DNA of 64,000 bases from Acidobacteriota bacterium. Lineage in GTDB: Bacteria > Acidobacteriota > Thermoanaerobaculia > Gp7-AA8 > JAHWKK01. Every line of letters begins with the position of its first letter. The first letter of the stretch is position 1. The position numbers were made by a program, and so were the translations under genes. This document shows positions 14,024 to 48,085 of the stretch, one piece after another. The notes under the pieces were generated by a model. It ran no database searches and had not been told where the DNA came from. It saw only the letters and a program-made list of their open reading frames with translations. The stretch spans positions 31,059-95,058 of the forward strand of contig JAHWKK010000003.1 in NCBI GenBank assembly GCA_019347945.1, written 5' to 3'.

Positions 14024-16627
<2,604 letters not shown>

Positions 16628-28800: not shown

Positions 28801-29035
28801 TGGCTGCCGTGAGAGAGCGCGATCCCCGGATGACCTTGATGGCAACCTGGCGGCCGAGTCGGCTGTCGTCTGCGACGTACACCTCGCCCATCGCTCCCGC
28901 TCCGAGAGGCCGGAGAACCCGATATCGGCCCAGGACCGATCCGGGACCGAGGGGACAATCGGGGATTACCGCCGGTTCCGCGACCGGCCGTTTCGAGGTC
29001 GGAAACTCGTCCGTCGATATACCTTCATTCGACAT
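25898..29035 (-). CDS. Serine/threonine protein kinase fused to an AAA/STAND ATPase and TPR repeats (PknK-like regulator)
   Basis: Hanks kinase (GAGAMGEVY, VAIK, HRDLKPDNIF, DFG). Walker A GPGGSGKTRLA with an NB-ARC-like ATPase. Long C-terminal TPR array. 1045 aa. Confidence 0.85.
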   Translation of the reverse strand: MSNEGISTDEFPTSKRPVAEPAVIPDCPLGPGSVLGRYRVLRPLGAGAMGEVYVADDSRLGRQVAIKVIRGSRSLTAATRARFEQEARAASALNHPNIVTIHDIGEEAGQPFIVMELLEGQSLRELVRQPVAAGQFLRIAFQIADALSATHEREILHRDLKPDNIFVTRHGVTKILDFGVASIRHDASPKEPLTLEGSAVGTLGYMAPEVIAGGAADFRSDMFSFGCILYEMATGSRPFKGASGVEIIATTLSERPPPVVKTRPDLPPMISTLIETMLQKDPRDRHRSTDDVRKTLAALAGADSAALHVSRPTPKLPEADFPLLGRERELRAIHELIVEQGVRLVSLTGPGGSGKTRLAIAAMEQLLPWYGGRVFYVPLAAISNRDFVGAAIAQALGGFDRGREPISGVITELQASSARTLLVIDNFEQVIEAASILTEILAACPTVSILVTSREILHLYAERALSVSVLPVPEPGAALSVNEALANPAVMLFVQRARATASSFDLNDENLAAVIEVCRQLDGLPLAIELAAARTRLMTPHAMLKRLDKRLKLLTGGARDLPGRQQTLRGTLDWSHELLSADEQTIFRRLAVFAGSFTLEHAQAVADPFERLGVDVVDGIGSLVDKSLVVQVGDDQEEPRFTMLGIVRDYAAERLEASGDEYVTRKAHAAYLLVLTEEGGQALSQGDSVRWLSRFARENDNLRAALEWVTAAGMTEWGLRLAVGIFPFWERSEHLSEGRKRLNALLALPSSGGDDILRARALFAVSVLSGTQGDYKIAAERAEESLALYRRLGDPGGIAIGCNCLGLTYKDLGQLERASEYLEESLEIWKTIGDDASLARSLTNLAMVRRLQNDHDAAREMYQQTEALFRRLGDDTSTAWVMNHQGDVARETDRLDDAFSLYTAALSSFRELNDQWGTASTLVDLGGLFRRRGEPDKADTAYREALAEFSRLTHRRGIARVLEAMALLDADQGRYERALTLAGAASRLRDIIGSPLPEGEQAELSAGIERARKSLDQADSRRLYQCGQCMGVSEAIDYALREGDA

Positions 29036-29113: not shown

Positions 29114-29935
29114 TTAGATGGAGAACCTCCGGAGGGCGACCAGCCCGATGATCGCGATCAGGGCGACGAGGGTCGCCATGCCGATCGGTCCGAGGGTCGG
29201 AATCTGCTCCACCGGCGGACGCGCCACCGCCGGCACGCACCCGGTGATGATCGAGTCCGTCAGTGTCACGTCGTCGTTCGCCAGGGCTCGACCTTCCCAG
29301 GTCGTGTCGGTCATCGTGGCCGAGGTCCCGGCGAGGACGTTTCCTGCGAAGGCCGCATCGGTCACCGTAAAGGCCTCGGCGGTCCACCAGTAAACGTTGC
29401 ACGCCTGCGCGGTGCCGCCCATGACAACATTGAAGCCAGGGCCGGTGCCGGTGAATGCGCCCAGCCCGCCGGTTCCGACCCTGAAGACCCAGACGTCGTC
29501 GGCGTCTCCGTCGAGTGTGATCGTGACGCCTGCGCCGATCGTGGTCCCTGCAGTGGAGCAGTAGACACCGGGCGCGAGCGTGGTCGTGGTGGTCGGAATG
29601 GTCCCGGTGCACGGGTTGGCCGTCGGGACCGCGTTGTAGGCGTTGTCGAAGTCATTGACGACCGTCCCGGAGACCGGCGCGTCAATGCTCCCCGTGATCG
29701 TACACGGCCCGGTGTTGGTGATCGAGTTGCCGGTGGTGCCCACGTTTCCATCGATTGTTGAAGTCGTACAGGTCACCGTACCGGAAGTCGGGATGTCGTT
29801 CGTACCGAGGACCGTGTAGTTCCCCGCCGTACCCAGTGGCGGCGCCACCTGGGCATCTGCCGTGGTGGCGAGTGCAAACGAAACCAGGGTGGCGAATGCG
29901 AAGCTGGCAATGAGTCTCGGGTGCGTGAGGTTCAT
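29114..29935 (-). CDS. Secreted DUF3494 (ice-binding-like) protein with an IPTL-CTERM sorting signal
   Basis: Signal peptide. DUF3494 pattern AGNYTVLGTNDIPTSGTVTCT...IDGNVGTTG. Thr/Gly-rich beta-solenoid. C-terminus EQIPTLGPIGMATLVALIAIIGLVALRRF matches the IPTL-CTERM motif (motif, TM helix, basic tail). Confidence 0.7.
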   Translation of the reverse strand: MNLTHPRLIASFAFATLVSFALATTADAQVAPPLGTAGNYTVLGTNDIPTSGTVTCTTSTIDGNVGTTGNSITNTGPCTITGSIDAPVSGTVVNDFDNAYNAVPTANPCTGTIPTTTTTLAPGVYCSTAGTTIGAGVTITLDGDADDVWVFRVGTGGLGAFTGTGPGFNVVMGGTAQACNVYWWTAEAFTVTDAAFAGNVLAGTSATMTDTTWEGRALANDDVTLTDSIITGCVPAVARPPVEQIPTLGPIGMATLVALIAIIGLVALRRFSI

Positions 29936-30233: not shown

Positions 30234-31208
30234 CTACTCCAGCGGAACGTCGTCCATCGGCAGGAAGTGCGGCACGACCACGCTCAGGCGTCTGGTCGAT
30301 GCCGGCGGGCTGGTGAGCTTGGCCCACAGCTCGATCTTCTCCCCTTTTTTCAACTCCCTGAGTTCTCCGCTGCAGGAGCATTTATTGTCAGGGTCTCGTA
30401 TCACGCCGTGCTTCTGCCGTTGTTCCGAATCAAGAAGATAGACGCCGCCGACGGTATTGAAGTCCGGAACCTCGTAATTGGTGTCCGCGAAGTCGTAGCC
30501 GAAGCCAATCGGCTCATCGCTGTCGTTGATGATCGCGAAGCGAAGATCGACGATGTCGCCACTTCCGCGGGAGAGTTTACGAACGACGACGCGTTGAGCC
30601 GGAATCTCACCCGCGGCCGAAGCAAGAGCTCCGTCCGAGGGCGGAGCCACCGGTGCAGCGATGCCGATCGGCACCTCGTCGATCGGCAGAAACTTCGGAA
30701 CGATCACCGACACCCTTTCAACGCCGACCGGCGGAGCGGGATACTTCGCCCAGAGAAGCGAGCGGCCTCCCGGCGGGATCGATTCGATCTTCCGGCTGCA
30801 GATGCAGCGGCTGTCGGCATCCCGCATCACCATGTGCTTCTCGCGGTTGGCTGCGTCGATCAGATGGACGCCGCCGATTCCGCTGTAGTCCAGTACATCG
30901 TGTGCGGGATCGGTGAATGTGTATCCGAAGTCGAGGTTCGCATCTCCCCCGTTGATCACCGAGAACACAAGCGTGAGAACGTCGTCGCTGCCGCGGTCGA
31001 GACTGTGGATCTCGGCGCGAACACCAGGGATCTCCGACTCGCCACGCGCGATGATGGGCCCGGGACCGCTCACGGGCGTGGTGGCGGATGGCGGTGTTTC
31101 GGCCGGCGTGTCCGCCTCGGGTTGAGCGGCGGAAGATGGGGCTTGCTCCTCTCCGCAGCTCGAAAGTAGCAGGAGCAGACAAATGACAACCAGACGATTC
31201 CCATTCAT
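30234..31208 (-). CDS. Lipoprotein with two tandem homologous ~135 aa domains (internal duplication)
   Basis: Lipobox LLSSCG; GGGAGGG RBS. Both halves share RGSxDxLxLxFxxINxxD...FGYxFxD...GGVxLxD...KHxVxRDxDxxCxCS...LWAK...PP...VPxFLPxDxVP. Family not recognised. Confidence 0.6.
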   Translation of the reverse strand: MNGNRLVVICLLLLLSSCGEEQAPSSAAQPEADTPAETPPSATTPVSGPGPIIARGESEIPGVRAEIHSLDRGSDDVLTLVFSVINGGDANLDFGYTFTDPAHDVLDYSGIGGVHLIDAANREKHMVMRDADSRCICSRKIESIPPGGRSLLWAKYPAPPVGVERVSVIVPKFLPIDEVPIGIAAPVAPPSDGALASAAGEIPAQRVVVRKLSRGSGDIVDLRFAIINDSDEPIGFGYDFADTNYEVPDFNTVGGVYLLDSEQRQKHGVIRDPDNKCSCSGELRELKKGEKIELWAKLTSPPASTRRLSVVVPHFLPMDDVPLE

Positions 31209-32089: not shown

Positions 32090-35000
32090 TCACGGCAGTC
32101 GGATCAGGTTTGCTCTGAACCCAGCGGAAGTGAGCTTCTCCCTGGCTGCCTCAGCCGCCTTTCTGGAGTGATACGGACCCGATCGGACGAGCTGAAAATT
32201 ACCCGAGCTCTCCGTGTACACCTCGTCCAGAATACGCGAGGCTTTCAGCCTGATCTGCTCGGCGTGTCCAGGATGGTTGGTGATCGCCAGGTGGAGCAGC
32301 CAGGACTCACGCGTCTCGGGTCTCGATAAGCGGGAGGGCGTCCGCGGTCGATCCTGCGGATCTCGTGGCTTTTCGGCAGCAGTCCGGCCGAGCGGTCGCG
32401 GATTCCTTTCGGATCGATTCACCGTCACGGTACCAGCAGCTGGCTGTTCTTCTTTCGGATCCTCCGGAATTCCGGCAGCTGATTCCGAGAGCGCCCGCTG
32501 ATCCGATTCCCCTCGATTGACCGCGACGGGACCAGTAGGCAGCTTTCCCGTCTCCTCACGTATCTGCGCTCTTTCGATCGCGATTGCTTCGAAGCCGGCC
32601 TTGCGAAGAGTGTCGCGAACCTCGATCGCCCTTGCCCTGCTGGGATAGCCGTCGGTTGCGACAATATAGAGCTCGCCGCGTTTCTCGACGACGGTGCGCT
32701 CGACGAGCTCCTGTTTCTCGACCCGGTCTGCGAGACTCAACGCATTGTCCTCGATGGAAAAAGCTCCGAGCTGTACGCGGAACGGCGCGGCGCCGGACTC
32801 CGCGGCCACTTGAGCCGAGCGCCGACCGTAGCCGCCGCGCATGACGAGCGAATCGAATCCCCGCGCCTTCAGGGCGTGCGACAGGGCAGTGGCTTCGGGC
32901 CTGGTGCGGCCAGCGGTCGTTCGTACGACATGAAGCTCTCCCGACCGGAGGATTCTGGCATCCGGAGCGATGTCGCTGATTGCCTCGAGCTGCTGCTTCG
33001 CATTCGCGGGCACTGCAAACGCCCCAGTCTGGACGATATATCTCGCCGAGCGCATAACGAGCGCTTCCCCCCCCCGCTCCTCCAGTTGCCGTGAGAGCGC
33101 GATCGCCTCGGTACGCGGAAGAGGACCAGTACGGATGATGTGATATTCGCCGCTCTGGATCACTGCCGCCCCGGGGGCCAGATCCCGCACTGCCTCGAGC
33201 TGATTGGTCGCGTTCTCGGCGATGCTGAATGCGCCGAGCTGAACCACCCAGCCTTGGCCGGAATCGACCTGGCGGGGTCGCGAGAAGACTGGCCGGGGGA
33301 TCGCTCCAACGTCTGTCTCACTAAGCTCCGGAAGTTCGGATTCAGCGACAGAGGCTCTCTCTGGCTCATTCGGTGCTTCGGCGATCTGGACTGGAGGCTC
33401 GTCCGCGGACGGCAGCACGAAATCGACCACGATCACAAACGGCGCATCCTCCGGAACCGGAAGCGGTTTTTGAAGAGCTCCCTTCGTGGAGACGAGATCG
33501 AAGGCGCTGCGAGAAGAGACTCGAAGGACGTACATCCCAGGCCGTACGTGTGTGAGCACGTAGAACCCGTCATAGGCACTCACCGTGCTCTGGACGATCT
33601 CGCCTCCGCGGTCGACCAGCTCGACCCTTACCCCCGCGAGCCCTTCCTTTCGTCCCCTTCTCGTGGTCCACACCGTTCCCTCGATTTCCGTCGTTTCGAT
33701 GATTGGCACATCGATGGCAGCCACCTTTCCCGGCCGCGGGATGATTCTGGTGCCCTCCTGCATGGGTATCCATTGGGGGCTTTCGAGAGTGGCCGTGGAC
33801 ACTGCGATGTCTGTCGGCTGGAGCGGTGAGAGATCGTCCACGAAAAGGATTCCCGACTCAGAGCTTCGCTGCGGCCGCTCGGCTCCATTGATCGTCACGC
33901 CGACTCGAGGAAGAAGCTCGTCCGCAGCGTCGAGAACCCCGTTGTGATTGCGGTCGAGAAAGACACGGAGTGATACGGCTCCGAACGAAGCCTTGTGCTG
34001 TGCGGCGGTGACCCATTCGTCCTCTCGGGGCTCGTGTCCGATCCCGGCGGAAAGATTGAGATTGCCCGAGATGACGCCATCGGCTCTCCTCGTGGTCTCC
34101 AGACCGGCAGCGAAGGCTCCCGTCGTCTTGCCGATACCGATGCTGTAAATGTGGGATTCGGAGAGAAAGGAGCGGCTCACGTTGGCGTAGACTCGATATT
34201 GCGAGCCGATCAGGCGTTCGAGAGTAAGGTTGACGGTGGATGCTCTTGCCGGCCGGAGAGTGTAGAGGAGCTCTCCCCGGACACCCAGATCGCGGATGTA
34301 GCGGCTCAACTGGAGCGAGCCTTCCAGCAGCGTTTCCTCACCAGTCACTTCCCTCCAGACGGCGATATTCGAGACCGAGAGCCCCTTGTAATTCGCAGAG
34401 ATACGGTTCCGGGCGACTGTCTCGGTCTTCCCCGAGGCAAGACTCCGGCGTTCCACCTGCAGACTGATGGGGATACGCGGGAGGACCCATGCCGGGATCG
34501 CGGTATCGAGCCGCAGCCGGTCGATCGTCACGACGGGATCCACGGCGAACGGGAACACTTGGCTGAAGAAGCCGGGACTGAGCTCGGTGCGATTCAGCAG
34601 TACGTTCGTCCCGATCAGACGCGTCTGCAGCCCTCCCTCCCACGCGTGAGCGCCCGACTCGTCCTGAACGTAGTCGCCATAAGCGTAGACGGCGTCCCAG
34701 AAGGTTCGCAGCCCGAGCTTTCCGTAGCTGCGAGAGCCGAGCTCCGTCGGTATGGATGCCACTTCGGCGATCCCGGTCAGGTGACGGTTGAGCCCGTAAC
34801 TCAGAAGCATCGATCCCCGCCGCGTCTCTTCGCTCTCGACGTTTGCCACGAGACGGTACTCGAACCTTCCGGGAAGTGTCAGCGATTCTCCGAGAAGGAA
34901 CCGATGCTCTTCTTCCCGCCGCTGCCCCTGCGGCCCGTAGAAGACGAGACGGAAAAAATTCATCCCGAACAGCAGAGGCACATCGACAAACTCGTACTGC

Positions 35001-36028
35001 CCGTCCGGGCGCGACTGCTGGTAACCGATGAGTGAGCCATTGTGATAGAGCTCGACGTCCCAACCGGGAGGGAGGTTGCCCCGGAACGAGTGCCGGTCGA
35101 ACTCGTCGGGACGGTGCAGAGGCATGTTGGTCAGAAGGAGCCCTGGTTCCGGCGCGCTGCTGTTGGTGAGAAGGCTGCTGCTCGGGTGGATGACGTGGCC
35201 GAGCGCGACCTCGGTGGCCCCGAGCCGCCCGCCCAGTTCACCGTACGGATCACGCCTCCGCAGCGTCAGTCTGGAGGTGTCGAAAAAATCATCGTCAGTT
35301 CCTGACAGATAAATCTCCGATTCCATGAACAGGAGATCTCCTGTTGCGTAGGTCGAATAGTTGGCCTGCGACTCGCTCTCGTCGAGTGTAAATCGCAGCG
35401 TCTGATCGATCGTGGGGATCTCCCAAAGGCGAAAACCTGTAGACACTCGCGGGTAACCGGGATCGCGAGTCATCAGACGGAGACGCCAGTGACGGATCTT
35501 TCGTTCGCGCTCGAGCCGTCTCTGCAGCGGCAGGGGCTCTCGTGGCCGCACCTGGACCCTCAGAGCGAACAGATCCACGTCGAAGGTAATCGGCAGCCAG
35601 TCACTGAGAAGCGTCGATTCCACGTAGATGTCATCCGCGTATACCTCGACCAGGGTGTCGGGAAATTTCCGGACTTTTCCCGAGATGGTCACCTCGCGCC
35701 GCGCGACATCGAGGTGAAAAGTTCGACTCTCCTCGAGGATGAACCCGGTTGCGAGTCCTTCAGGAGGATCCACAGACACGGCCAGCCCGACCACGTCGCT
35801 CATCGCTTCGAGCGGCAGAAAGGTTCCGCCCCCGGGACCGGAGTAGGCAGCCACTGCATCGGCCAGGACAGTGCCCTCGAGCACCACCTCGAGCAGAAGA
35901 AGGTCTTCGTCGGCCGGATCGACGATGGTGATCGGTTGTGCGTGTGTGACCGATGCTGAAAGCATGGCGAACAGCACAGCAGAGAGAAGGCCACTGCACT
36001 GGAGCCACACCTCGCAACGATACCTCAC
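32090..36028 (-). CDS. Outer-membrane usher-like protein of a chaperone-usher pilus pathway fused to four C-terminal SPOR domains
   Basis: 1312 aa immediately downstream of a PapD-like chaperone gene. Signal peptide. Large beta-rich core with a carboxypeptidase-regulatory-like fold (VRVELVDRGGEIVQSTVSAYDGFYVLTHVRPGMYVLRV). Then four SPOR-like repeats (VVQLGAFSIAENATNQLEAV; IVQTGAFAVPANAKQQLEAI; RVQLGAFSIEDNALSLADRV; LLHLAITNHPGHAEQIRLKASR). The usher assignment rests on operon position and size; sequence motifs are weak. Confidence 0.6.
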   Translation of the reverse strand: MRYRCEVWLQCSGLLSAVLFAMLSASVTHAQPITIVDPADEDLLLLEVVLEGTVLADAVAAYSGPGGGTFLPLEAMSDVVGLAVSVDPPEGLATGFILEESRTFHLDVARREVTISGKVRKFPDTLVEVYADDIYVESTLLSDWLPITFDVDLFALRVQVRPREPLPLQRRLERERKIRHWRLRLMTRDPGYPRVSTGFRLWEIPTIDQTLRFTLDESESQANYSTYATGDLLFMESEIYLSGTDDDFFDTSRLTLRRRDPYGELGGRLGATEVALGHVIHPSSSLLTNSSAPEPGLLLTNMPLHRPDEFDRHSFRGNLPPGWDVELYHNGSLIGYQQSRPDGQYEFVDVPLLFGMNFFRLVFYGPQGQRREEEHRFLLGESLTLPGRFEYRLVANVESEETRRGSMLLSYGLNRHLTGIAEVASIPTELGSRSYGKLGLRTFWDAVYAYGDYVQDESGAHAWEGGLQTRLIGTNVLLNRTELSPGFFSQVFPFAVDPVVTIDRLRLDTAIPAWVLPRIPISLQVERRSLASGKTETVARNRISANYKGLSVSNIAVWREVTGEETLLEGSLQLSRYIRDLGVRGELLYTLRPARASTVNLTLERLIGSQYRVYANVSRSFLSESHIYSIGIGKTTGAFAAGLETTRRADGVISGNLNLSAGIGHEPREDEWVTAAQHKASFGAVSLRVFLDRNHNGVLDAADELLPRVGVTINGAERPQRSSESGILFVDDLSPLQPTDIAVSTATLESPQWIPMQEGTRIIPRPGKVAAIDVPIIETTEIEGTVWTTRRGRKEGLAGVRVELVDRGGEIVQSTVSAYDGFYVLTHVRPGMYVLRVSSRSAFDLVSTKGALQKPLPVPEDAPFVIVVDFVLPSADEPPVQIAEAPNEPERASVAESELPELSETDVGAIPRPVFSRPRQVDSGQGWVVQLGAFSIAENATNQLEAVRDLAPGAAVIQSGEYHIIRTGPLPRTEAIALSRQLEERGGEALVMRSARYIVQTGAFAVPANAKQQLEAISDIAPDARILRSGELHVVRTTAGRTRPEATALSHALKARGFDSLVMRGGYGRRSAQVAAESGAAPFRVQLGAFSIEDNALSLADRVEKQELVERTVVEKRGELYIVATDGYPSRARAIEVRDTLRKAGFEAIAIERAQIREETGKLPTGPVAVNRGESDQRALSESAAGIPEDPKEEQPAAGTVTVNRSERNPRPLGRTAAEKPRDPQDRPRTPSRLSRPETRESWLLHLAITNHPGHAEQIRLKASRILDEVYTESSGNFQLVRSGPYHSRKAAEAAREKLTSAGFRANLIRLP

Positions 36029-36046
36029 GGTTCTGGCCTCACCACG

Positions 36047-36874
36047 CTACTGGACCGTGACCACTCCCTCGGCACTCACAGGGTCCGTCTGATCGGGTCT
36101 TTCCTCGAAAGTGACGCGCAGGCGCCCCGGGGGCACGCCATTGGACAGAACAGGAAGAGGAACGCGTGCCCGACGCAGCGAGTTCGGGGTGTAAACGGCG
36201 ACACCGCTCGCTCGCCCGACGACTCTTTCGGGACCATCACCGGTCTTCAGATAAACGGTCACATCCCCGTACACCGAACGGGTCCCCTCCCGTTCGAGCA
36301 CGAAACTGACGTCCGGGGTTCCGTCGGTATTCTCCCGCAGTCCGATTTCCCGGACCGAGACGCTGACGCTCAGGTCTCCATGCCGGACGATGACGGGAAT
36401 GGATGCACTGTAGATCGCGGTCAGCCTGATTTTCAGGTCTTCCTCAGCTTCGTCATCGGGCAACGTTGCATCTTCCTCTGTCGGCGGGAGTGCCTGAAAG
36501 AGCAGATGCGACCGGTACTCCCCCTGTTCCAGATCGGGTGGCTTCCGCAACTGCAGCCGCACCGTTTGCGCGACTCCCGGCTGCAGCACGACCTGCCGGG
36601 GGGAAAACCGAATCATTCCATCGGCGAAATTTTCCTCCGGAAGAGGTTCCTCCACCGGCACAAAAGCGCCGGTCTCCGTCATTCGCCGCTGGATCAGTGA
36701 GACCCGGTAGATCGCAGCCTCACTTCCGGAATTGATCAGGTCGATCTGTGCCGTTCTCGAGTTGCCCTCGAAGACCACTCTCGTGGGGTGAACCATCAAC
36801 TCGCTGGCCGCCCAGGCCTGGGCCGTGCCGAATGCGACGATGATGGCGAGAACTGACCATTTCAATCGGTTCAT
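36047..36874 (-). CDS. Pilus assembly periplasmic chaperone (PapD-like)
   Basis: Signal peptide MNRLKWSVLAIIVAFGTAQAWA. PapD N-terminal pattern LMVHPTRVVFEGNSRTAQIDLINSGSEAAIYRVSL. Two Ig-like halves. The track start at 36910 is probably too long. Confidence 0.6.
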   Translation of the reverse strand: MNRLKWSVLAIIVAFGTAQAWAASELMVHPTRVVFEGNSRTAQIDLINSGSEAAIYRVSLIQRRMTETGAFVPVEEPLPEENFADGMIRFSPRQVVLQPGVAQTVRLQLRKPPDLEQGEYRSHLLFQALPPTEEDATLPDDEAEEDLKIRLTAIYSASIPVIVRHGDLSVSVSVREIGLRENTDGTPDVSFVLEREGTRSVYGDVTVYLKTGDGPERVVGRASGVAVYTPNSLRRARVPLPVLSNGVPPGRLRVTFEERPDQTDPVSAEGVVTVQ

Positions 36875-36983
36875 CTCGATTCTCCTGTCGTACCTGGTCA
36901 ATTTCAGCATCCAATGTCATGCCGTTTCCAATAATAGTATGCCGAACTGATGCCCTCCACCTCATCGGGGGAAGGATCAGACA

Positions 36984-37014
36984 TGAAAAAAGGGCAGGGA
37001 CGAATCCCTGCCCT
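36984..37014 (-). terminator. Rho-independent terminator after pilin gene copy 1
   Basis: On the minus strand: AGGGCAGGGA ttcgtc CCTGCCCT followed by TTTTTT. Confidence 0.6.
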
Positions 37015-37038
37015 CGAGAAAGCGGATGATCGAGATGC

Positions 37039-37548
37039 TCAGTTGTACTCGACTCCGACGTTGAAGGTGCCGGTGTAGCTGCCGGTGGTCTGCGCGCTGG
37101 CAACGGTGAGCGTGCCGCCGACACCGACGGTCTGCGCTCCGCTCGCGCTCAGTGTGCCCGTACCGGAGGGGTTGCTGGTGAACGTGCCGACGCTCATCGT
37201 CTTGGTGGTGTCGGTTGCGTGCGTGATGGTCACTGCGCTCGCCGGCAGCGTGATGGCGTAGGTGGCGTTGTTGTCACCGGTGACATTGAACGATGCCGCG
37301 CCGCCCACATTGGACGAGGAGAGGATAACCGCCCCCGTTGCACTGCGCGTCCCGGCGGGGGCGATGACGACCGTTCCGCCGGTGCCAGCGGCGAACTTGC
37401 CGAATTTGAGATCCGCGGCCTTCGAGATGGCGATTGGCGTGATGACTTCGGCCGTGGCGTTGGCGGTGGCCTCGGCGGCTTCACCGTCTGCGACGAACAT
37501 GGCTGAGGATGCGAGAACCAGAGTGAGGATGATGACTGTTTTTTTCAT
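37039..37548 (-). CDS. Pilin/fimbrial subunit (DUF4402 / spore-coat-U-like), copy 1
   Basis: Signal peptide MKKTVIILTLVLASSAMFVADGEA. Pattern EVITPIAISKAADLKFGKF...GTVVIAPAG...VGVEYN is typical of DUF4402 pilins. 169 aa. Confidence 0.6.
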   Translation of the reverse strand: MKKTVIILTLVLASSAMFVADGEAAEATANATAEVITPIAISKAADLKFGKFAAGTGGTVVIAPAGTRSATGAVILSSSNVGGAASFNVTGDNNATYAITLPASAVTITHATDTTKTMSVGTFTSNPSGTGTLSASGAQTVGVGGTLTVASAQTTGSYTGTFNVGVEYN

Positions 37549-37713
37549 TTTCGTTTCTCCCTTGTTTGTTGTTGTCCGGCGCTAACCGGTTCTGCTAATA
37601 AGTCGGCGGGAAGCGGGAAAAAATACAGCCGGGTCATTTTTCTTTCGCTCTGGAAAAAGTCGACGTCCGATGAGCTGGATTCGGAGCCATCCTGAAGTGG
37701 TCAATCACACGCA

Positions 37714-37743
37714 AAAAAAGGGCAGGGACGAATCCCTGCCCTT
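37714..37743 (-). terminator. Rho-independent terminator after pilin gene copy 2 (same hairpin as 36984..37014)
   Basis: Identical GGGCAGGGAcgaatcCCTGCCCT hairpin plus a T-run on the sense (minus) strand. Confidence 0.6.
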
Positions 37744-37766
37744 TGAAAAACGGATGGTCGAGATGC

Positions 37767-38276
37767 TCAGTTGTACTCGACTCCGACGTTGAAGGTTCCG
37801 GTGTAGCTGCCGGTGGTCTGCGCGCTGGCAACGGTGAGCGTGCCGCCGACATTGACGGTCTGCGCTCCGCTCGCGCTCAGGGTGCCCGTACCGGAGGGGT
37901 TGCTGGTGAACGTGCCGACGCTCATCGTCTTGGTGGTGTCGGTTGCGTGCGTGATGGTCACTGCGCTCGCCGGCAGCGTAATGGCGTAGGTGGCGTTGTT
38001 GTCACCCGTGACGGCGAACGATGCCGCGCCGCCCACGTTCGACGAGGAGAGGATAACCGCCCCCGTTGCACTGCGCGTCCCGGCGGCGGCGATGACGACC
38101 GTTCCGCCGGTGCCAGCGGCGAACTTGCCGAATCGGAGATCCGCGGCCTTCGAGATGGCAATCGGCGTGATGACTTCGGCCGTGGCGTTGGCGGTGGCCT
38201 CGGCGGCTTCACTGTCTGTGACGAACATGGCTGAGGATGCGAGAACCAGAGTGAGGATGATGACTATCTTTTTCAT
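37767..38276 (-). CDS. Pilin/fimbrial subunit (DUF4402 / spore-coat-U-like), copy 2 (tandem duplicate)
   Basis: ATG at 38276 with AAGGGAGAAAC RBS. Protein ~97% identical to copy 1 (MKKIVIILTL...VGVEYN). The track ORF to 38402 overextends. Confidence 0.6.
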   Translation of the reverse strand: MKKIVIILTLVLASSAMFVTDSEAAEATANATAEVITPIAISKAADLRFGKFAAGTGGTVVIAAAGTRSATGAVILSSSNVGGAASFAVTGDNNATYAITLPASAVTITHATDTTKTMSVGTFTSNPSGTGTLSASGAQTVNVGGTLTVASAQTTGSYTGTFNVGVEYN

Positions 38277-38836
38277 TTTTTGTTTCTCCCTTGTTTGTTG
38301 TTGTCCGGCGCTAACCGGTTCTGCTCCATAGGTCGGCGGGAGAGGAGAAAAAATACAGGCGGGCCAATTCTTATTTTGCGGAGCTCGATCCGGATCAGCC
38401 AAAATGAGGGGCGACCTGGAGATCTGCGCGAGCAGCGGCGTCGAAGAAAAACCTCAGTGGTGCTCGATCAGCAGGGGAAGACCGTTTGGTACCTTCCCTC
38501 GGGGCGCGTGATTGATGCGAGCTCGAAAGTGTTCTCACCGCTGGGATCGATCCGCGATCCGCCATTGTTCTCCGGCAGCCGTGGATGAGGATGTCAGACG
38601 CGCCCGTATTTTTTTTGATCCCTGGCGGACTCATGAGTTGAGAACCGTACCGGGCGGGCAGCGCAGCCCGGTGCTCCCGCGCTGGCGCTAACCGGTATTT
38701 TCACCGGGTGGAGCCGGCTCGTCCGGTACGGTTCTCCTTGGGATGCTTCTGATCGCGTAACTGTCGGGAAATTCGACGTTTGTCGGATTATGAACAGGTA
38801 CGCCAAAGCTGTTTTTCATGCTAGCTCTCTTGTTTA

Positions 38837-39778
38837 GTGCCACTTAAGCTCATCTTCGGGATGGCAGCGCCCTTGGAATGTATCGAGGCATCAAATGGAG
38901 GGTACGAGTTGCAGAAAATCCTGATGGTTGATGATGAAGTCCTGGTGGCCGAGGCGCTCGCAGAGCTGTTTCGTGATGAACAGATCGAGCTCATCTCTGC
39001 GGAGGACGCCCAAAGCGCCGCCACACTGATGGAGGCGGAGTTTTATCCAGTGATTCTCGCCGACGTGCGGCTGCGTACCGAGGCGGAGGGGCTCCAGCTG
39101 CTCGAGTCGATTCGCAGGCTGAGCCCAGGTTCTCGTGTTGCCAGCGTCACCGGATTTGCGACGCCGGCGCTGGAAGCTCAGCTCAGGGAGCGGGGCGCGG
39201 AGCTGGTTCTCTACAAGCCGGTCGGGTTCGACGAGCTTCTGCGCGTGGTCCGCGAGCTCCTGGAAGCCAGGGAAGAGGATGAAGAGACAGAAGTCCCGGT
39301 CGATTTCGACGAGCTCTACACCAATCTGCAGAAGCTTCTTTACTCTCTGCCCGGGCGGCGATACGGTCTCACCGCAGACGAGACTGAGGAGGTCGTGCAG
39401 CAGGCGTGGTGCCTCCTGATCGAAAAACAGTCGCAGATCAAAAATCCGAAGGCATGGCTTGCGGGGACGGTCGTGAACCTGTGCAAGCAGGAGATCCACC
39501 GGAAAATGAACAAGCGCGAGGTCGAGACAGAGGAAGCCGCTCTGGAGCTCGAATACGGCGGAGACGCCGGTTCCGGTCCCGACGATGTGCTCATCGTACG
39601 GCAGGCGCTCGATCGCGTCGATCAGCGCAGTCGCGATCTTTGTCAGCTCATCGGGATGGAAAAACACTCATACGAAGAGGTCAGCGAGATCCTCGACCTG
39701 CCGCTCGGATCGGTCGGACCGCTATTCATCCGCGCGAAGGCAAAGTTGAAGAGAGAAATCGCAGCGGGCGCAAGCTGA
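38837..39778 (+). CDS. Response-regulator receiver domain fused to an ECF-type sigma-70-like C-terminal domain
   Basis: REC: KILMVDDEVLVAEAL...PVILADVRL...VTGF...K. C-terminal sigma region 2-like (EVVQQAWCLLIEKQSQIKNPKAWLAGTVVNLCKQEIHRK) and region 4-like HTH (SYEEVSEILDLPLGSVGPLFIRAKAKLKRE). Divergent from the pilus operon. Confidence 0.6.
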   Translation: MPLKLIFGMAAPLECIEASNGGYELQKILMVDDEVLVAEALAELFRDEQIELISAEDAQSAATLMEAEFYPVILADVRLRTEAEGLQLLESIRRLSPGSRVASVTGFATPALEAQLRERGAELVLYKPVGFDELLRVVRELLEAREEDEETEVPVDFDELYTNLQKLLYSLPGRRYGLTADETEEVVQQAWCLLIEKQSQIKNPKAWLAGTVVNLCKQEIHRKMNKREVETEEAALELEYGGDAGSGPDDVLIVRQALDRVDQRSRDLCQLIGMEKHSYEEVSEILDLPLGSVGPLFIRAKAKLKREIAAGAS

Positions 39779-40106
39779 TAAGCCGCGGGACAATCAGGAG
39801 AGGAGAGGTGTGTTCGCAGTCGTACTCCTGACGAACGCGGCAGACCCGCAGGTGGCGCTCACGGAGTCGAAGTCGCCCGCGGTCTGAGAAGACACTCCGC
39901 ATGCTCTTTGACAGCCTCTGAGATCCGGAAGGCGGTGGGGGGAGGGTTTCCCGGACGCTTTCGCGGGGCCTGTCAACTTGCATGCTCCCGTCGCTGGAAG
40001 TCGAGACAGGTGAGCGAAGCACGGTGGGCGTGATGGGTGGTCGCTCCGCCCGAGTCAGGCTCTCTCCGCGTTTCGTGTATTCTCAGAAGATTCGAAGGTG
40101 ATCGGT

Positions 40107-43100
40107 ATGACTCTTTCTGAAAAGCGCCCTGGAACATGGAGGCTTGTTCTCGCGCTGTTCCTCGCTGCGCCTACGACTGCGGGCGCGGCTGAGAAGCCTG
40201 CGGCGCTCGATCCGACGGGGCCGATCCGCCAGTACGTCCACCAGAAGTGGGGACAGGAGTCGAAGCTGCCGGTGACAACTCTGCTCTCACTGGCTCAGAC
40301 TTCGGACGGCTATCTCTGGATCGGCACTGAAGAGGGGCTGGTTCGGTTTGACGGAGTTACCTTTGAAACATTCACGACCGGCGACAGTCCAGGGCTGGCC
40401 GGAAACTACATCAACACACTCCTCGTGACCCGTGAGGGTTCGCTGCTGATCGGCACGGGCGAGGGTGGTTTCTCGCTCCTCGACGACGGACGATTCACTG
40501 CATTCGGACTCGCACACGGTCTGCTGAGCGAGAAGGTTTCGGCTCTTCTGGAGGCTCGGGACGGGACGATCTGGATCGGCACCGGGGAAGGGCTGCAGGC
40601 CTGGGACCGAAAGACCTTTCGCTCCTTCACGGGTGAGCACGGGCTTCCTTCAGGAAAAATCACTGCTCTCGCGGAGGATCGGTCCGGAGACCTGTGGGTC
40701 GCCGCCGCGGACAAGATTTCGCGCTTCGACGGCCGGAACTTCACGACCTACGAGCCCGCCGGGGGAGCCCCGGTCAAGGCGCTCCTGGCCGTCGAGGATT
40801 CTCTCTGGATCGGGACGAGCGGTGGAGGCCTCGTACGGCTCGAAGATGGCAACTTCCACAAGTTTTCCACAGCCGACGGGCTATCGGGTGACAACGTTCT
40901 CTCTCTCGCACAGGGAACCGGGGCAATCTGGATCGGGACAGGTGGGGCAAGCCTGGACCGATACGCCGGCGGAGAGTTCGCTTCATTCGATTCGGCTGAT
41001 GGGCTCGTCGGCGAGAACGTCTGGACGATCCTGGAAGATCGCGACGGGAGCGTCTGGAGCGGAGGGGCCGGAGGGCTGAACCGGTTCAAGACCTCGACCG
41101 TCCTCACCTATGGTACGCGCGACGGGCTGTCCCATCAGGTCGTCCTCCCGATTCTGCAGACCAGATCCGGAGATGTCTGGATCGGCACCGCTGGCGGCGG
41201 ACTCAATCGTTACAGGAAGGGTTCGTTCGACACCTTCACGACACGCGAGGGTCTGTCGGGTGACATCATTCTCTCGCTCTGGGAAGAGGCGGACGGAAGT
41301 CTGCTGGTTGCAACGGTCGGAGGGCTCGACCATTTCCACGACGGTCGTATCGACCGCTATGAACATGCAGATCAGATGTTTCAGGCGATCCCGCAGTCAC
41401 TGCATCGGGATCGGGACGGCGCCCTCTGGATCGGGACGACCGACCGAGGAGTGATCCGGATCGAGGATGGCGAAATCGCTCTCTTCACCACACGGGAGGG
41501 AATCGCAGGGAACAGCATTCTCGATATCCATGAAGATCGTGAAGGAGCTCTCTGGTTCGCGAGCGATGGTGGGGGACTGACCCGGTACAGCGAAGGGAGG
41601 TTCAGTACCATCACCACCCGCGAGGGACTGCCGACGAATGTGATCCTTTCAATCACCGAAGGCTCCGACGGCTCCCTCTGGCTCGGCTCGGTGGGAGCGG
41701 GCCTGATCCGGATCTTCGACGGCGCGATCACGTCCTACGGGCCGCGGGAGGGGTTCTCCGAGCATACCGTGTATCGAGCTCTCGAGGACGATCTTGGTCG
41801 GCTCTGGCTGAGCTCCACCCGAGGGATTACAGCGGTGGAAGTGAGCGCTCTCGATGAGCTCGCTGCCGGTCGTATCGACTCGATCAGTCCGCTTCGATTC
41901 GACCGGGACCACGGTATGAAGAGCAGTGAGTGCAACGGCGGCGTGGATCCGGCGGGGTGGAAGATGCGTGACGGGACCCTCTGGTTTCCCACGATGGACG
42001 GCGTCGCGGTGATCGATCCCGTGACTGCCGTACGGCGCATGGTGCCCCCCTCACCTGTGGTGATCGAGCGGGTTGTGATCGAGGGAGCTCCCGTCGATCC
42101 GGGTGAAGCGCGACTGATCGAGCGTCTCGCCGGCAAGTACGACGTCGAGATCGCGTACACCAGTCCGAGCCTTTACGACCCCGAGGGCGTGGAGTTTCGC
42201 TACCAGCTCGTGGGATTCGACCCGGGATGGATCGACGCGGGAGCTCGACGGGCGGCGTATTACACGCAGCTTCCGCCAGGGAATTACCATTTCCGGGTCG
42301 CTGCCGTGAACGGGGCGGGAGTCGTGGAGATGTCCGGAGACCCGATCGAGCTTCGTATTCGTCCTCGTCTCACCCAGCGACCTCTTTTCTACATCGGACT
42401 GCTGCTGGTTGCCGCGGCGGCAGTCATCGCCATCTACCGCTATCGCCTTCGCGCTTACGAGAAGCGACAGTCGGAGCTGGTGGCTCTGATCGAGGAGCGG
42501 GCAAGAGCGGAAGAGGCACTGCGGCAGAGCGAACAGCACTTCCGCTCTCTGATCGAGAATGCCTCCGACATTATCCTTGCCCTCGACCTGGATGGGCGAA
42601 TCCTCTACGCAAGTCCGTCCACCGCGCGAGTTCTCGGGTACCGTCCGGAGCAGATCGTGGATCGGCTGCTTTCGGATCTCGTGCATCCCGAGGACGAAGC
42701 TGCAGCGATGGTGGCACTGCGGGAGAAGACCAGCTCGAGCTCGTCGGTCTCCGTCTCGTTCCGCCTGCGGCATTCCGACGGCTCCTGGCGCTCTCTCGAG
42801 GCGGTCGCACGAAGACTGGCCGAGACTGGTGCAGCGGACTCACTCGTGGTGAACTGTCGCGACGTCACGGATCGAAATCTTCTGCAGTCTCAACTGGAGC
42901 AGGCACATCGACTGACGAGTCTCGGCAGCCTCGCTGCGACTATAGCTCACGAGTTCAATAATGTTCTGATGGGTGTTCAGCCGTTCACCGAGATCATTCA
43001 GCAGAAGAGCACCGGAGATCCTCTGCTTCAGAGCGCTGCAAAACAGATTTCCTCTGCGGTCGATCGTGGCAGGCGGATCACTGGCGAGGTCCTCCGTTAC

Positions 43101-44401: not shown

Positions 44402-44980
44402 ATGACTGGTGCCGGGCCGGCGGTCGCCCGAAGGTCTCTAAAACTGGTGACCGGAGCTGCCCCGGGGGTCCTTGATTTCCTCCTTCAGTCCGGGCTCCGC
44501 CCGCAGCTCGCAGGTTGTCTCCGCTTCAGGCAAGTCAAGGCGAAAGGCGAAGATTTTCTGAAACAAACCAGACAAGAGTACGAGCGTCCTCACCCGTCGG
44601 AGGGTTCGCGCCTGCGGTCCCTCATCTGGAGCATCGTCTCGCTTTTTTTCGGCTGGACGATTTTCTTTTACTGGTGGTCGATCGTTCTGAAGGAGACGAC
44701 GAGCGGAGCGTTCATCGACGTCATCGCCGGGCTGATGTTCGTCCTGGCGGTGCTGTTCATCGTCTCTATCTTCTGGATCGCCCACAACCTGCGACTCGCC
44801 CGGCGAGGGCGGCGCAGCAGTTCGACGCCTTATTTCCCGGGGTCGCGAGGCCGGGACAAGTTTGATCGATCACCGGTGATCGAGAACCTCGAGACGCTTC
44901 GGACTTGGCCGGTGGTAGTCGTCGATACTGATGAGGAGGGGAAGTCGTACGTTCGGGGTGACGAGGAGAGGGAGGCGTGA
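44402..44980 (+). CDS. PgaD-like two-TM inner-membrane protein (accessory subunit of a beta-glycan synthase); start uncertain
   Basis: Two TM helices (LIWSIVSLFFGWTIFFYWWSIVL; FIDVIAGLMFVLAVLFIVSIFWIAHNL) and a short basic tail. The stop overlaps the GT2 gene start (ATGA at 44977). The FYWWS-TM-TM arrangement resembles E. coli PgaD. Confidence 0.4.
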   Translation: MTGAGPAVARRSLKLVTGAAPGVLDFLLQSGLRPQLAGCLRFRQVKAKGEDFLKQTRQEYERPHPSEGSRLRSLIWSIVSLFFGWTIFFYWWSIVLKETTSGAFIDVIAGLMFVLAVLFIVSIFWIAHNLRLARRGRRSSSTPYFPGSRGRDKFDRSPVIENLETLRTWPVVVVDTDEEGKSYVRGDEEREA

Positions 44981-47813: not shown

Positions 47814-47869
47814 CCTTCGAGACCGGTCGCGAATCTACCTTTTAACCCGCCACTCAACTGTCGTAAAGT
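47697..47869 (+). repeat. Direct repeat copy A' (3' end of the porin gene plus 55 bp downstream)
   Basis: About 88% identical to 50774..50947. Together they bracket the DUF5916 gene. Confidence 0.75.
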
Positions 47870-48085
47870 TCGACGATCTACAGATCGTTGGCCTGAAGGG
47901 AACGAAGCGCGACCTACGCTGTCAATTCGTGAGAGTTGCATGACCGGGCGGGCGAGCCGCCGCCAGGAGCTCGCGTGAATCAAGCCTCCGGCCAGACGTT
48001 GCATCGCGCAAGCTGTATCGCGTCGGCGTCTCCCAATCCGGTATTCTTCTTCACGACAGACGTAATGTGGGATGGAATTGTGCGA

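Follow-up and report, generated by a model that had tools for sequence, protein, structure and literature searches.

A putative chaperone-usher-type fibre assembly locus of an acidobacterium with a predicted SPOR-bearing usher and a divergent receiver-ECF sigma gene

The subunits of chaperone-usher (CU) pili are marked by an N-terminal extension together with a C-terminal pattern of a glycine at position -14 (Gly(-14)) and a penultimate tyrosine, and in the classical systems terminators follow the genes fimA and papA. Surveys generally collect CU systems via an usher HMM; archaic ushers do match the usher model PF00577. For type IV pili (T4P), modules of the AMIN and LysM type are known to anchor the pore and to recruit it to septal or polar peptidoglycan, and SPOR domains attach to denuded glycan at septa. 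ECF sigma factors are typically autoregulated. According to reviews, N-terminal extensions of such factors are rare and uncharacterised.

Here we analysed a window of 64,000 nucleotides (the whole stretch of DNA studied) from an Acidobacteriota bacterium of the Thermoanaerobaculia. A preliminary description had placed two duplicated pilin genes, a PapD-like chaperone gene and a gene for a 1312-aa usher-like protein on the minus strand, in this order, with a REC-ECF sigma gene encoded divergently, and all of these features were found at the same positions (Table 1). We consider it likely, judging from genes and models, that the locus encodes a complete chaperone-usher-type fibre assembly system that is tethered by SPOR domains, driven by the REC-ECF sigma and expressed in part by read-through. 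A further ORF (30234-31208) was dropped as a component of the system because no homologue of it was found in any of the related loci.

Table 1. Positions of the features of the locus within the window
Feature	Position	Strand	Evidence or remark
SPOR domains 1 to 4	33047-33256, 32837-33046, 32564-32803, 32093-32302	-	PF05036, repeat mapping
Pro/Glu-rich linker between SPOR3 and SPOR4	32303-32563	-	
Pro/Glu-rich linker before SPOR1	33257-33448	-	
1312-aa ORF (predicted usher core and SPOR tail)	32090-36028	-	ORF list, Pfam, AF2
Predicted usher core, aa 1-860 (about 860-870 aa)	33449-36028	-	AF2 (pLDDT 89.2), Foldseek
PapD-like periplasmic chaperone ORF	36047-36910	-	PapD_N, hhalign, synteny
Tandem duplication	36976-38379	-	units 36976-37648 and 37704-38379
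Intrinsic terminator after pilin gene 1	36990-37015	-	11-bp G+C-rich stem, about T6-8
Pilin gene 1 (DUF4402, 169 aa)	37039-37548	-	PF14352
Promoter-like motif CTGTATTT-N16-GAC upstream of pilin gene 1	37602-37628	-	
Intrinsic terminator after pilin gene 2	37717-37744	-	12-bp G+C-rich stem, about T7-8
Pilin gene 2 (DUF4402, 169 aa)	37767-38276	-	PF14352, E 4e-31
Promoter-like motif CTGTATTT-N16-GAC upstream of pilin gene 2	38332-38358	-	
Promoter-like motif CCGTATTT-N16-GAC facing REC-sigma gene	38604-38630	+	candidate autoregulatory promoter
REC-ECF sigma fusion	38837-39778	+	Pfam Response_reg, NCBIfam TIGR02937
Hybrid sensor kinase	40098-44027	+	Pfam: Reg_prop/Y_Y_Y propeller, PAS, HisKA, HATPase_c, REC

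Duplicated pilin genes, promoter motifs and the REC-ECF sigma

The two pilin genes lie in a tandem duplication with a period of 728 nt and 93% identity over 676 nt, each unit of which carries a promoter motif, a leader, the pilin coding sequence and a terminator; the encoded proteins are identical at 162 of 169 residues. A small possible CCGG...CCGG hairpin occurs in the leader; its stem is simply conserved, a pattern that speaks neither for nor against a folded structure. Both terminators begin about 20 nt past the pilin stop codon, that of pilin gene 1 standing about 80 nt ahead of the chaperone ORF, and they were the two strongest sites of a terminator scan that returned 7 terminator-like sites over the whole region vs 6.4 expected, i.e. 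no excess. Rfam contained no family for the pilin leaders or terminators. The proposal that each pilin gene ends in its own terminator thus holds, whereas the attenuator that had been derived from it must allow for the fact that each pilin copy also has its own promoter motif.

Upstream of position 38276, where an ECF-type promoter had been anticipated, we found the bipartite motif TGTATTT-N16-GAC, which differs from the canonical ECF AAC/CGT promoter. Three matches to this motif are present in the window vs 0.28 expected by chance; a sigma-70 promoter scan of the region found none. Among related loci, divergent motif pairs (pilin and sigma side) occur in L002, L083 and L091, the sigma-side motif in L002, L083/L084 and L091, and the pilin-side motif in L005 and L004, and the motif is missing at unlinked REC-sigma paralogues in L090 and L092. 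REC-sigma and CU genes were linked in 5 of the 7 contexts examined, and the motif recurs in relatives only where such linkage exists, which supports an autoregulated, phosphorylation-controlled sigma factor. Because the loci in which the motif recurs are rather close relatives, common descent may account for some of its conservation.

The REC-ECF sigma, for which the NCBI model begins 24 codons later, has more than 120 full-length relatives. Its receiver (aa 28-138; Response_reg PF00072, 61.6 bits) contains D32/D33, D76, T105 and K127, as read from the translation. Sigma regions 2 and 4 (aa 157-307) were matched full-length and above cutoff by TIGR02937 (sigma70-ECF; model positions 3-164 of 165, 45.3 bits vs 42.9), even though the corresponding Pfam models stayed below their cutoffs (Sigma70_r2 19.8 vs 24, r4_2 18.1 vs 25.7). 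The latter scores, together with the non-canonical motif, the existence of paralogues unlinked to CU operons and the text of the ECF classification paper, in which REC fusions are not mentioned, leave a small but appreciable probability that this protein is not the sigma factor of the operon but an anti-anti-sigma mimic of the PhyR kind or a neighbour without relation to it, with the motif read by another factor or serving as a repressor site. However, the PhyR model NF006623 matched the REC part only (40 bits vs a cutoff of 240), and the PhyR order of an N-terminal sigma-like and a C-terminal receiver domain is reversed here. The placement of the motif before both pilin and sigma genes, confined to loci with a linked sigma, also argues against this alternative, as does the autoregulation common to ECF sigmas. 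We regard the REC-ECF sigma as a credible regulator of the operon, as the preliminary description had suggested; it is probably autoregulated, and its intact REC and ECF domains are consistent with sigma activity under the control of phosphorylation. The hybrid sensor kinase encoded directly downstream is a candidate phosphodonor, and a related hybrid kinase core adjoins the locus in L005, L001, L081 and L091.

DUF4402 subunits, chaperone and the predicted usher

Both pilins belong to DUF4402 (PF14352, E 3e-31 to 4e-31). Pilin 2 comprises a signal peptide, an N-terminal extension of ~14 aa before the Pfam domain and a C-terminal ...G(-14)...Y-N end, of which Gly(-14) and the penultimate Tyr are conserved among homologues. 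In Foldseek, CU pilins made up about 45 of the 50 best matches to the AF2 model of the pilin (pLDDT 91, built with database homologues), with modest scores, and the closest solved fold was the archaic pilin CsuA/B. PDB searches with the pilin, by single sequence and by family profile, gave no pilin match.

The chaperone was matched by PapD_N just above the cutoff (24.0 bits vs 23), and PapD_N also matched 33 of 35 of its homologues. Its hhalign comparison with six E. coli chaperones gave a probability of 92% (E 6e-7, 197 columns), and the invariant PTR44VVF of the family aligned with the Arg8 motif of FimC; PDB sequence searches with the single sequence and the family profile gave weak chaperone matches at most. 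The true start of the protein is probably the ATG at 36874 (MNRLKW..., with GGAGAA just before).

In its predicted layout, the core of the 1312-aa protein has a signal peptide, an N-terminal domain (NTD, aa 43-162) and a barrel whose strands 1-6 (aa 206-300) and 7-24 (aa 389-666) flank a plug (aa 312-382); two C-terminal beta-sandwich domains (CTDs) follow at aa 671-860. DSSP of the AF2 model showed 6 long strands after the NTD, then a small domain of 6 strands, another 18 long strands and finally 2 beta-sandwich domains. In a Foldseek search against the PDB, FimD and PapC entries filled ranks 1-18 (E 5.7e-26 to 2e-11), with TM 0.52-0.53 for the translocation-pore entries 2vqi and 3ohn. From rank 19 onward came beta-sandwich proteins (SdrD, TIE protein and SpaA-type pilins, E 4e-10 and weaker), which correspond to the CTDs. 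At the sequence level, PF00577 gave no match to the 1312-aa protein even at E <= 10, neither PapC_N nor PapC_C matched the core, and NCBIfam yielded no usher match either. A PDB search with the usher family profile found no solved usher, and by sequence or profile no solved relative of usher or pilin was detectable. The hhalign comparisons of the family with five E. coli ushers (7.6% probability) and with FimD alone (1.4%) were not significant, the sole stretch aligned being a conserved CTD1 motif. Since HMMs, profiles and hhalign provide no link to ushers, the assignment rests on the predicted structure, from which the large protein appears to be an outer-membrane usher with a plugged 24-strand barrel and periplasmic NTD and CTDs; of the earlier usher claim, the plugged barrel is borne out by the model and the HMM match is not. 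In Pfam, the NTD matched Cu_amine_oxidN1 rather than PapC_N, so chaperone docking may differ, and the CTDs matched CarboxypepD_reg and SdrD_B.

The overall assignment to a chaperone-usher type is upheld by the predicted usher fold, the chaperone homology and the proximity of the pilin to CU pilins, but the label 'archaic' that had been attached to the locus is not. An ordinary archaic system (sigma-clade, Csu/CupE-type) that has diverged too far for HMMs is unlikely, given that SCPU PF05229 and Fimbrial PF00419 matched 0 of 42 subunits even at E <= 1 and DUF4402 matched 42 of 42, that the usher fails the model to which archaic ushers respond, and that Pfam assigns its NTD and CTDs to different families.

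Of still lower probability is the idea that the large protein is another type of outer-membrane barrel, one that exports a surface or coat protein which does not polymerise, or that transports a substrate, with DUF4402 proteins not being pilins. The lack of a sequence-level link to ushers would fit, as would the modest pilin fold scores and the fact that DUF4402 has no characterised member, literature searches for DUF4402 or PF14352 having returned nothing relevant. Yet the first outer-membrane barrel after the ushers in the Foldseek list was LptD (E about 4e-6), so that usher matches lead all other barrels by about 20 orders of magnitude in E-value, and the subunits carry the extension and C-terminal signature of CU subunits. 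Synteny with the PapD-type chaperone is strict: a chaperone homologue adjoins the usher gene in 77 of 80 related loci and DUF4402 genes (1-5 copies) occur in 72 of 80, the mapped loci having the order DUF4402, chaperone, usher, with the chaperone directly upstream of the usher. Many loci encode several subunit paralogues, some without the N-terminal extension and some with two domains, as expected for tip and adhesin subunits.

At E <= 1e-30 the usher family comprises 446 species representatives and 3696 clusters at 50% identity, named 'SPOR domain-containing', 'DedD' or 'carboxypeptidase regulatory-like' proteins in public records; literature searches found no paper on the DUF4402-chaperone-usher trio. 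The locus probably belongs to a large, unnamed CU-type family that is separate from the classical and alternate families and also from the archaic one, from which HMMs set it apart as more divergent.

The putative peptidoglycan-binding tail

The four C-terminal SPOR repeats, already noted in the preliminary description, were matched by PF05036 in four stretches (111.2 bits vs a cutoff of 21, E 3e-32) and map to about aa 925-994, 995-1064, 1076-1155 and 1243-1312; the CwlC SPOR structure (PDB 1x60) was matched as well (E 0.002). The fusion had been considered undescribed, and literature searches for ushers with SPOR or peptidoglycan-binding domains indeed returned nothing relevant, but it is not rare in databases: SPOR was found in 31 of the 120 nearest homologues and in 15 of 150 cluster representatives, with Pseudomonas tumuqii and Marinobacter among the carriers. 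SPOR, LysM and AMIN occur interchangeably on the periplasmic ends of these ushers. The C-terminal modules of relatives are SPOR (1-2 copies), LysM or both, SPOR or LysM being present in about 15% of family representatives, and a few relatives have AMIN at the N-terminus; among the members compared, four SPOR copies occur only in the present protein. By analogy with other SPOR proteins, the tail may bind peptidoglycan and anchor the usher pore, although tethering is not essential to the family, as 69 of 80 genome relatives lack a peptidoglycan-binding tail. It is very improbable that the protein is a DedD/FtsN-like cell-division protein with an incidental N-terminal part, as JGI names for P0004, P0005, P0016 and P0021 ('cell division septation protein DedD') and weak NCBIfam matches to RlpA and FtsN might suggest, because these matches are confined to the SPOR repeats and far below cutoffs, 870 of 1312 residues form the usher-like barrel, most family members have no SPOR, and the gene always lies within a pilin-chaperone operon.

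Proposed mechanism and comparison with known systems

In the chaperone-usher reading that we favour, Sec would export the DUF4402 subunits, which the PapD-like chaperone would capture and which would be polymerised, presumably by donor-strand exchange via the ~14-residue extension, the polymer being secreted through the plugged 24-strand barrel. Both usher termini are predicted to be periplasmic, the C-terminus leading through flexible Pro/Glu-rich linkers to the SPOR domains, which on denuded, septum-enriched glycan might hold the assembly pore to the cell wall and perhaps also determine its place there. Expression would be driven by the REC-ECF sigma upon phosphorylation of its receiver, the neighbouring hybrid kinase being the probable phosphodonor, with transcription from TGTATTT-N16-GAC before each pilin gene and before the sigma gene itself (positive autoregulation). 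The strong terminators would keep pilin mRNA in excess, and chaperone and usher would be expressed by read-through. More tentatively, and with less than even confidence in the combined claim, DUF4402 pilins might form, together with their chaperones and the cryptic ushers, an unrecognised major CU branch (in Acidobacteriota, Pseudomonadota, Nitrospirota, Armatimonadota and others) that has repeatedly gained interchangeable SPOR, LysM or AMIN modules fixing or targeting the pore to the septal or polar wall, and that in Thermoanaerobaculia is driven by a new signalling device in a single polypeptide, an ECF sigma directly phospho-activated via its own N-terminal receiver.

An usher HMM that is blind to a family of thousands of clusters implies that the capacity for adhesive fibres is systematically under-counted, which concerns soil and aquatic bacteria and Acidobacteria especially. 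The fusion of an usher with a peptidoglycan-binding module offers a testable link between sites of pilus assembly and the cell wall or division site, and cultured relatives exist (Pseudomonas tumuqii, Marinobacter, Halomonas, Massilia and Polaromonas). If active as proposed, the REC-ECF sigma would represent a new route of ECF control, by direct phospho-activation without an anti-sigma factor, and could serve as a compact orthogonal switch.

With classical CU pili (type 1 Fim and P pili) the locus shares the operon logic of subunit(s), chaperone and usher, the terminator after the major-subunit gene (the fimR2 3' element is likewise located after fimA), the C-terminal Gly(-14) and penultimate Tyr of the subunits, and a chaperone homologous to FimC/PapD with the Arg8 equivalent conserved. 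The predicted usher resembles FimD/PapC in its NTD, its 24-strand barrel with the plug inserted after strand 6 and its two C-terminal beta-sandwich domains; it differs from them in sequence (10-13% identity and no match to PF00577, PapC_N or PapC_C), in its Cu_amine_oxidN1-like NTD and CarboxypepD_reg/SdrD_B-like CTDs, and in the C-terminal tail of four SPOR domains. The subunits are DUF4402 instead of Fimbrial (PF00419), and a REC-ECF sigma would take the place of invertible switches or Lrp/PapB-type control. Unlike archaic CU pili (Csu of Acinetobacter baumannii, CupE of Pseudomonas aeruginosa), the system lacks both SCPU PF05229 and PF00577. The putative regulator is similar to ECF sigmas with regulatory extensions, being composed of sigma2 and sigma4 only, with a fused domain apparently taking over the control that an anti-sigma factor would exert, but the fused domain is an N-terminal receiver; PhyR has the opposite domain order and a degenerate sigma-like domain. 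PF05036 repeats are shared with FtsN, DamX, DedD and RlpA, even though SPOR makes up only the C-terminal third of the present protein, no FtsN or RlpA match exceeds the cutoff, and the repeats sit on a predicted outer-membrane barrel instead of an inner-membrane anchor or lipoprotein. A parallel to the fusion of an usher with peptidoglycan modules is found in type IV pilus secretins (PilQ with AMIN; the LysM proteins TsaP and FimV), in which an outer-membrane conduit for pili is likewise combined with peptidoglycan modules; the machine and fold are unrelated, and here the module is fused to the predicted usher barrel itself.

Gene content and predicted fold of the locus

ORF calling returned the gene set of the preliminary description, namely two pilin-size genes, a chaperone gene, a gene for a 1312-aa protein and a divergent regulator gene (Table). 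The G+C content is even across the window (around 0.60–0.63) and gives no hint of a foreign island. Identical proteins are found in NCBI, originating from an Acidobacteria MAG, under the names 'SPOR domain-containing protein', 'DUF4402 domain-containing protein' and 'sigma-70 family RNA polymerase sigma factor'.

The large protein, described beforehand as usher-like, is not an usher by sequence but is one by predicted structure. The Pfam Usher model (PF00577) did not match it even at E ≤ 10, while a CarboxypepD_reg/SdrD_B-like domain was recognized at aa 782–843. Neither phmmer nor a 54-sequence family profile found a solved usher, and hhalign comparisons of the family with FimD (1.4%) and with five E. 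coli ushers (7.6%) were insignificant, the conserved CTD1 motif being the sole stretch aligned. By contrast, an AlphaFold2 (AF2) model of aa 1–870, built with the family alignment as input (mean pLDDT 89.2), contained the proposed barrel and plug: 24 predicted barrel strands, as read from the DSSP string, with the plug after strand 6. When this model was searched against the PDB with Foldseek, ranks 1–18 were all FimD or PapC (E 5.7e-26 to 2e-11), with TM-scores of 0.52–0.53 for isolated translocation pores. From rank 19 onward followed the beta-sandwich proteins SdrD, TIE protein and SpaA-type pilins (E 4e-10 and weaker), which correspond to the usher's C-terminal domains; the next outer-membrane barrel was LptD (E ~4e-6).

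For the chaperone-like protein, PapD_N barely reached its gathering score (24.0 versus 23), and it matched 33 of 35 homologues. Profile–profile comparison with six E. coli chaperones covered both domains (92% probability, E 6e-7) and aligned the family's invariant PTR44VVF with the Arg8 motif, by which FimC and PapD anchor the carboxylate of the subunit. Both pilins matched DUF4402 (PF14352, E 3e-31). Their model (pLDDT 91) retrieved nearly exclusively chaperone–usher pilins among the Foldseek top 50, but with weak E-values (≥1e-3); by sequence, the DUF4402 profile matched no solved protein, and the SCPU and Fimbrial models matched none of 42 subunits. The subunits end in G-x12-Y-N, with Gly at −14 and a penultimate Tyr, as in the C-terminal signature of classical subunits. 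Between signal peptide and Pfam domain lie around 14 residues (ATANATAEVITP), a candidate donor strand. A literature search found no paper mentioning DUF4402 or PF14352.

Usher-core relatives occur in 446 species representatives, and of 1.84 billion cluster representatives searched with a profile, 3696 matched at E ≤ 1e-30. The hosts include Thermoanaerobaculia, Holophagales, Nitrospiraceae and Armatimonadota as well as Polaromonas, Massilia, Halomonas, Marinobacter and Pseudomonas. Among the 80 best loci, 77 carry a chaperone homologue and 72 carry DUF4402 genes (one to five copies); in mapped loci DUF4402 comes first, followed by the chaperone and, immediately after it, the usher, and some have a further DUF4402 gene downstream. 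In proteobacterial loci the chaperone-adjacent subunit gene often lacks the N-terminal extension, and in some loci the first gene encodes a two-domain DUF4402 protein of ~340 aa. These two classes, neither of which is present in the window, look as tip or adhesin subunits would and are candidates for that role. From sequence, predicted structure and synteny, on which every function assigned here rests, we infer that the locus works in a chaperone–usher-like manner.

Features of the locus and of related loci (window coordinates unless a related locus, L, is named; aa, residues of the large protein)
Feature	Position	Strand	Basis or remark
Large protein, 1312 aa	32090-36028	-	ORF, SPOR x4
NTD, mixed alpha/beta (after signal peptide)	aa 43-162		AF2 model, DSSP
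Six long strands	aa 206-300		AF2 model, DSSP
Compact six-strand domain	aa 312-382		AF2 model, DSSP
Eighteen long strands	aa 389-666		AF2 model, DSSP
Two beta-sandwich domains	aa 671-860		AF2 model, DSSP
SPOR domains 1-4	~aa 925-994, 995-1064, 1076-1155, 1243-1312		Repeat mapping
Chaperone-like gene, 287 aa	36047-36910	-	ORF, PapD_N
Pilin 1, 169 aa	37039-37548	-	ORF, DUF4402 (PF14352)
Pilin 2, 169 aa	37767-38276	-	ORF, DUF4402 (PF14352)
Pilin units	36976-37648 and 37704-38379	-	93% identical over 676 nt
Motif upstream of pilin 1	37628-37602	-	CTGTATTT-N16-GAC, identical to pilin 2 copy
Motif upstream of pilin 2	38358-38332	-	CTGTATTT-N16-GAC, identical to pilin 1 copy
Third motif copy, facing REC-sigma	38604-38630	+	Motif search, one mismatch
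REC-sigma, 313 aa	38837-39778	+	ORF, divergent from minus-strand genes
Hybrid sensor kinase after REC-sigma	40098-44027	+	Candidate kinase
DUF4402 classes in proteobacterial relatives	L055 572-1612, L061 4397-5437, L068 1141-2142, L071 4084-5112, L079 323-1360; also L008 274-741, L006 714-1175

Peptidoglycan-binding modules on the usher scaffold

The predicted SPOR repeats were recovered by PF05036 in four stretches of the large protein (E 3e-32), with Pro/Glu-rich linkers before SPOR1 and between SPOR3 and SPOR4. An usher tail is absent in 69 of 80 genome loci. Ten of the eleven tails were scanned with Pfam (all except L077, Marinobacter denitrificans), and eight contained SPOR: L001–L005, L009 (Holophagales), L044 (Pseudomonas tumuqii) and L052 (Marinobacter sp. 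ELB17). The tail of L039 is LysM, and the usher ORF of L023 (1998-5714) reads on in frame into HisKA and HATPase_c, so that it is either an usher–kinase fusion or an artefact of assembly or frameshift. Other family members carry a C-terminal LysM, SPOR plus LysM, or an N-terminal AMIN domain. When the 120 nearest homologues were scanned with home-made HMMs, 31 had SPOR, 9 had AMIN and 7 had LysM; of 150 cluster representatives, 15 had SPOR and 7 had LysM. The usher–SPOR fusion is distributed beyond the window, with one or two SPOR copies in relatives and four only here. A literature search for ushers fused to SPOR or another peptidoglycan-binding domain found no relevant paper. In P0065 and L015–L022 (Polaromonas and relatives), an usher N-terminal extension of ~170 aa without Pfam match sits where the family proteins P0040 and P0063 have their AMIN domain.

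Both termini of known ushers are periplasmic, so that SPOR, LysM and AMIN modules would face the cell wall. The recurrence of three unrelated peptidoglycan-binding modules on the same scaffold argues for peptidoglycan attachment as the property under selection. Septal targeting via denuded glycan, as initially suggested, would go one step further, by analogy with SPOR biology and with type IV pili, in which PilQ has AMIN domains and TsaP and FimV are LysM proteins.

Candidate regulation of the pilin genes

The regulator had been read as a receiver fused to an ECF-sigma-like part, and this reading held: Pfam recognized Response_reg and, weakly, sigma regions 2 and 4, TIGR02937 (the NCBIfam ECF model) matched over the full length above cutoff, and the receiver residues D32/D33, D76, T105 and K127 are all in the translation of this protein (REC-sigma). 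According to reviews, N-terminal extensions of ECF sigma factors are rare and uncharacterised, and receiver fusions go unmentioned in the text of the ECF reclassification. The bipartite motif preceding both pilin genes has three matches in the window versus 0.28 expected, with three or more in 0/100 shuffles. With the same spacing it lies 5' of the pilin gene in L002, L004, L005/L081, L083 and L091, with a second copy facing the divergent REC-sigma in L002, L083/L084 and L091. These loci are fairly closely related, and shared ancestry may account for some of the conservation. Of the seven REC-sigma contexts examined, five (window, L002, L005/L081, L083, L091) show divergent linkage to the DUF4402 operon, and the motif is absent at the unlinked paralogues L090 and L092 that make up the other two. 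Such a pattern is as expected of an autoregulated alternative sigma factor and its target promoters, and is comparative evidence, not proof, that REC-sigma has this role at the pilin promoters. The hybrid sensor kinase that follows is a candidate kinase, and related kinase cores adjoin the locus in several relatives.

Each pilin unit comprises promoter motif, leader, coding sequence and terminator, and 7 of 169 residues distinguish the two proteins. Since only one pilin gene is found in close relatives, the duplication is recent and lineage-specific. As described previously, each gene has its own terminator (G+C stems of 12 bp and 11 bp with T-runs), and a strong hairpin of differing sequence occupies the same place in L001, L002, L004, L005 and L083. 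The chaperone starts ~80–115 nt past the terminator with no promoter motif ahead of it, and the usher, 18 nt past the stop codon of the chaperone, has a GGTGAGG ribosome-binding site of its own. Partial read-through to chaperone and usher, as in the pap and fim operons, would be the simplest reading. Of the attenuator initially proposed, the terminators stand, read-through is inferred, and each pilin unit has its own motif.

Further elements were observed in the leaders. Between the sigma-side motif and the REC-sigma start, ~207 nt fold at -94.7 kcal/mol (z -4.8) and include a long imperfect inverted repeat, GAGAACCGTACCGG...CCGGTACGGTTCTC (38640-38736, +); Rfam has no family for this leader. 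Just downstream of the pilin motifs, GAACC(C)CGG-N6-CCGG (37575-37600 and 38305-38330, -) is also kept in the pilin leaders of L002, L005 and L004; the element is possibly a small 5' hairpin or else a binding site, and its stem is conserved without compensatory changes.

The whole window is kinase-dense, with a propeller hybrid histidine kinase (Reg_prop/Y_Y_Y; 17992-21582, +) paralogous to the one after REC-sigma, and STAND/TPR Ser/Thr kinases at 25898-29035, 14024-16627 and 61170-63479. Downstream of the hybrid kinase that follows REC-sigma, genes for a family 2 glycosyltransferase, a TPR protein and a CBM9/DUF5916 protein (44977-50686, +) may constitute a neighbourhood for surface polysaccharide or matrix. 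The minus strand further encodes an ice-binding-like domain protein that bears an IPTL-CTERM sorting motif (29114-29935) and has a lipoprotein-like ORF with an LSSC lipobox and two repeats of ~130 aa (30234-31208); neither Pfam nor NCBIfam matched this ORF, and none of the 80 related loci has a homologue. In L083 (1770-3265 and 9022-16852), CheR and CheB come after the usher, and lasso-peptide-like biosynthesis genes (PqqD, transglutaminase-like, Asn synthase, ABC exporter) come after REC-sigma.

Relation to known chaperone–usher systems

Three points are noteworthy: the cryptic usher family as such, its recurring peptidoglycan-binding fusions, of which the four-SPOR tail is the extreme case, and an ECF sigma fused to a receiver with a conserved candidate promoter. 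The original archaic label had to be dropped, since the two pilins are DUF4402 rather than SCPU proteins and the usher has no PF00577 match; in HMM tests the locus fell outside both the archaic clade and the Pfam usher family. The classification that suits it best is a new, deeply divergent chaperone–usher pathway variant. The predicted usher core follows the same plan as PapC and FimD, which reportedly have a 24-strand barrel with the plug after strand 6. It differs from classical ushers in its NTD, which is weakly Cu_amine_oxidN1-like (a strong match in some relatives), and in its CTDs, which are CarboxypepD_reg/SdrD_B-like and not PapC_C.
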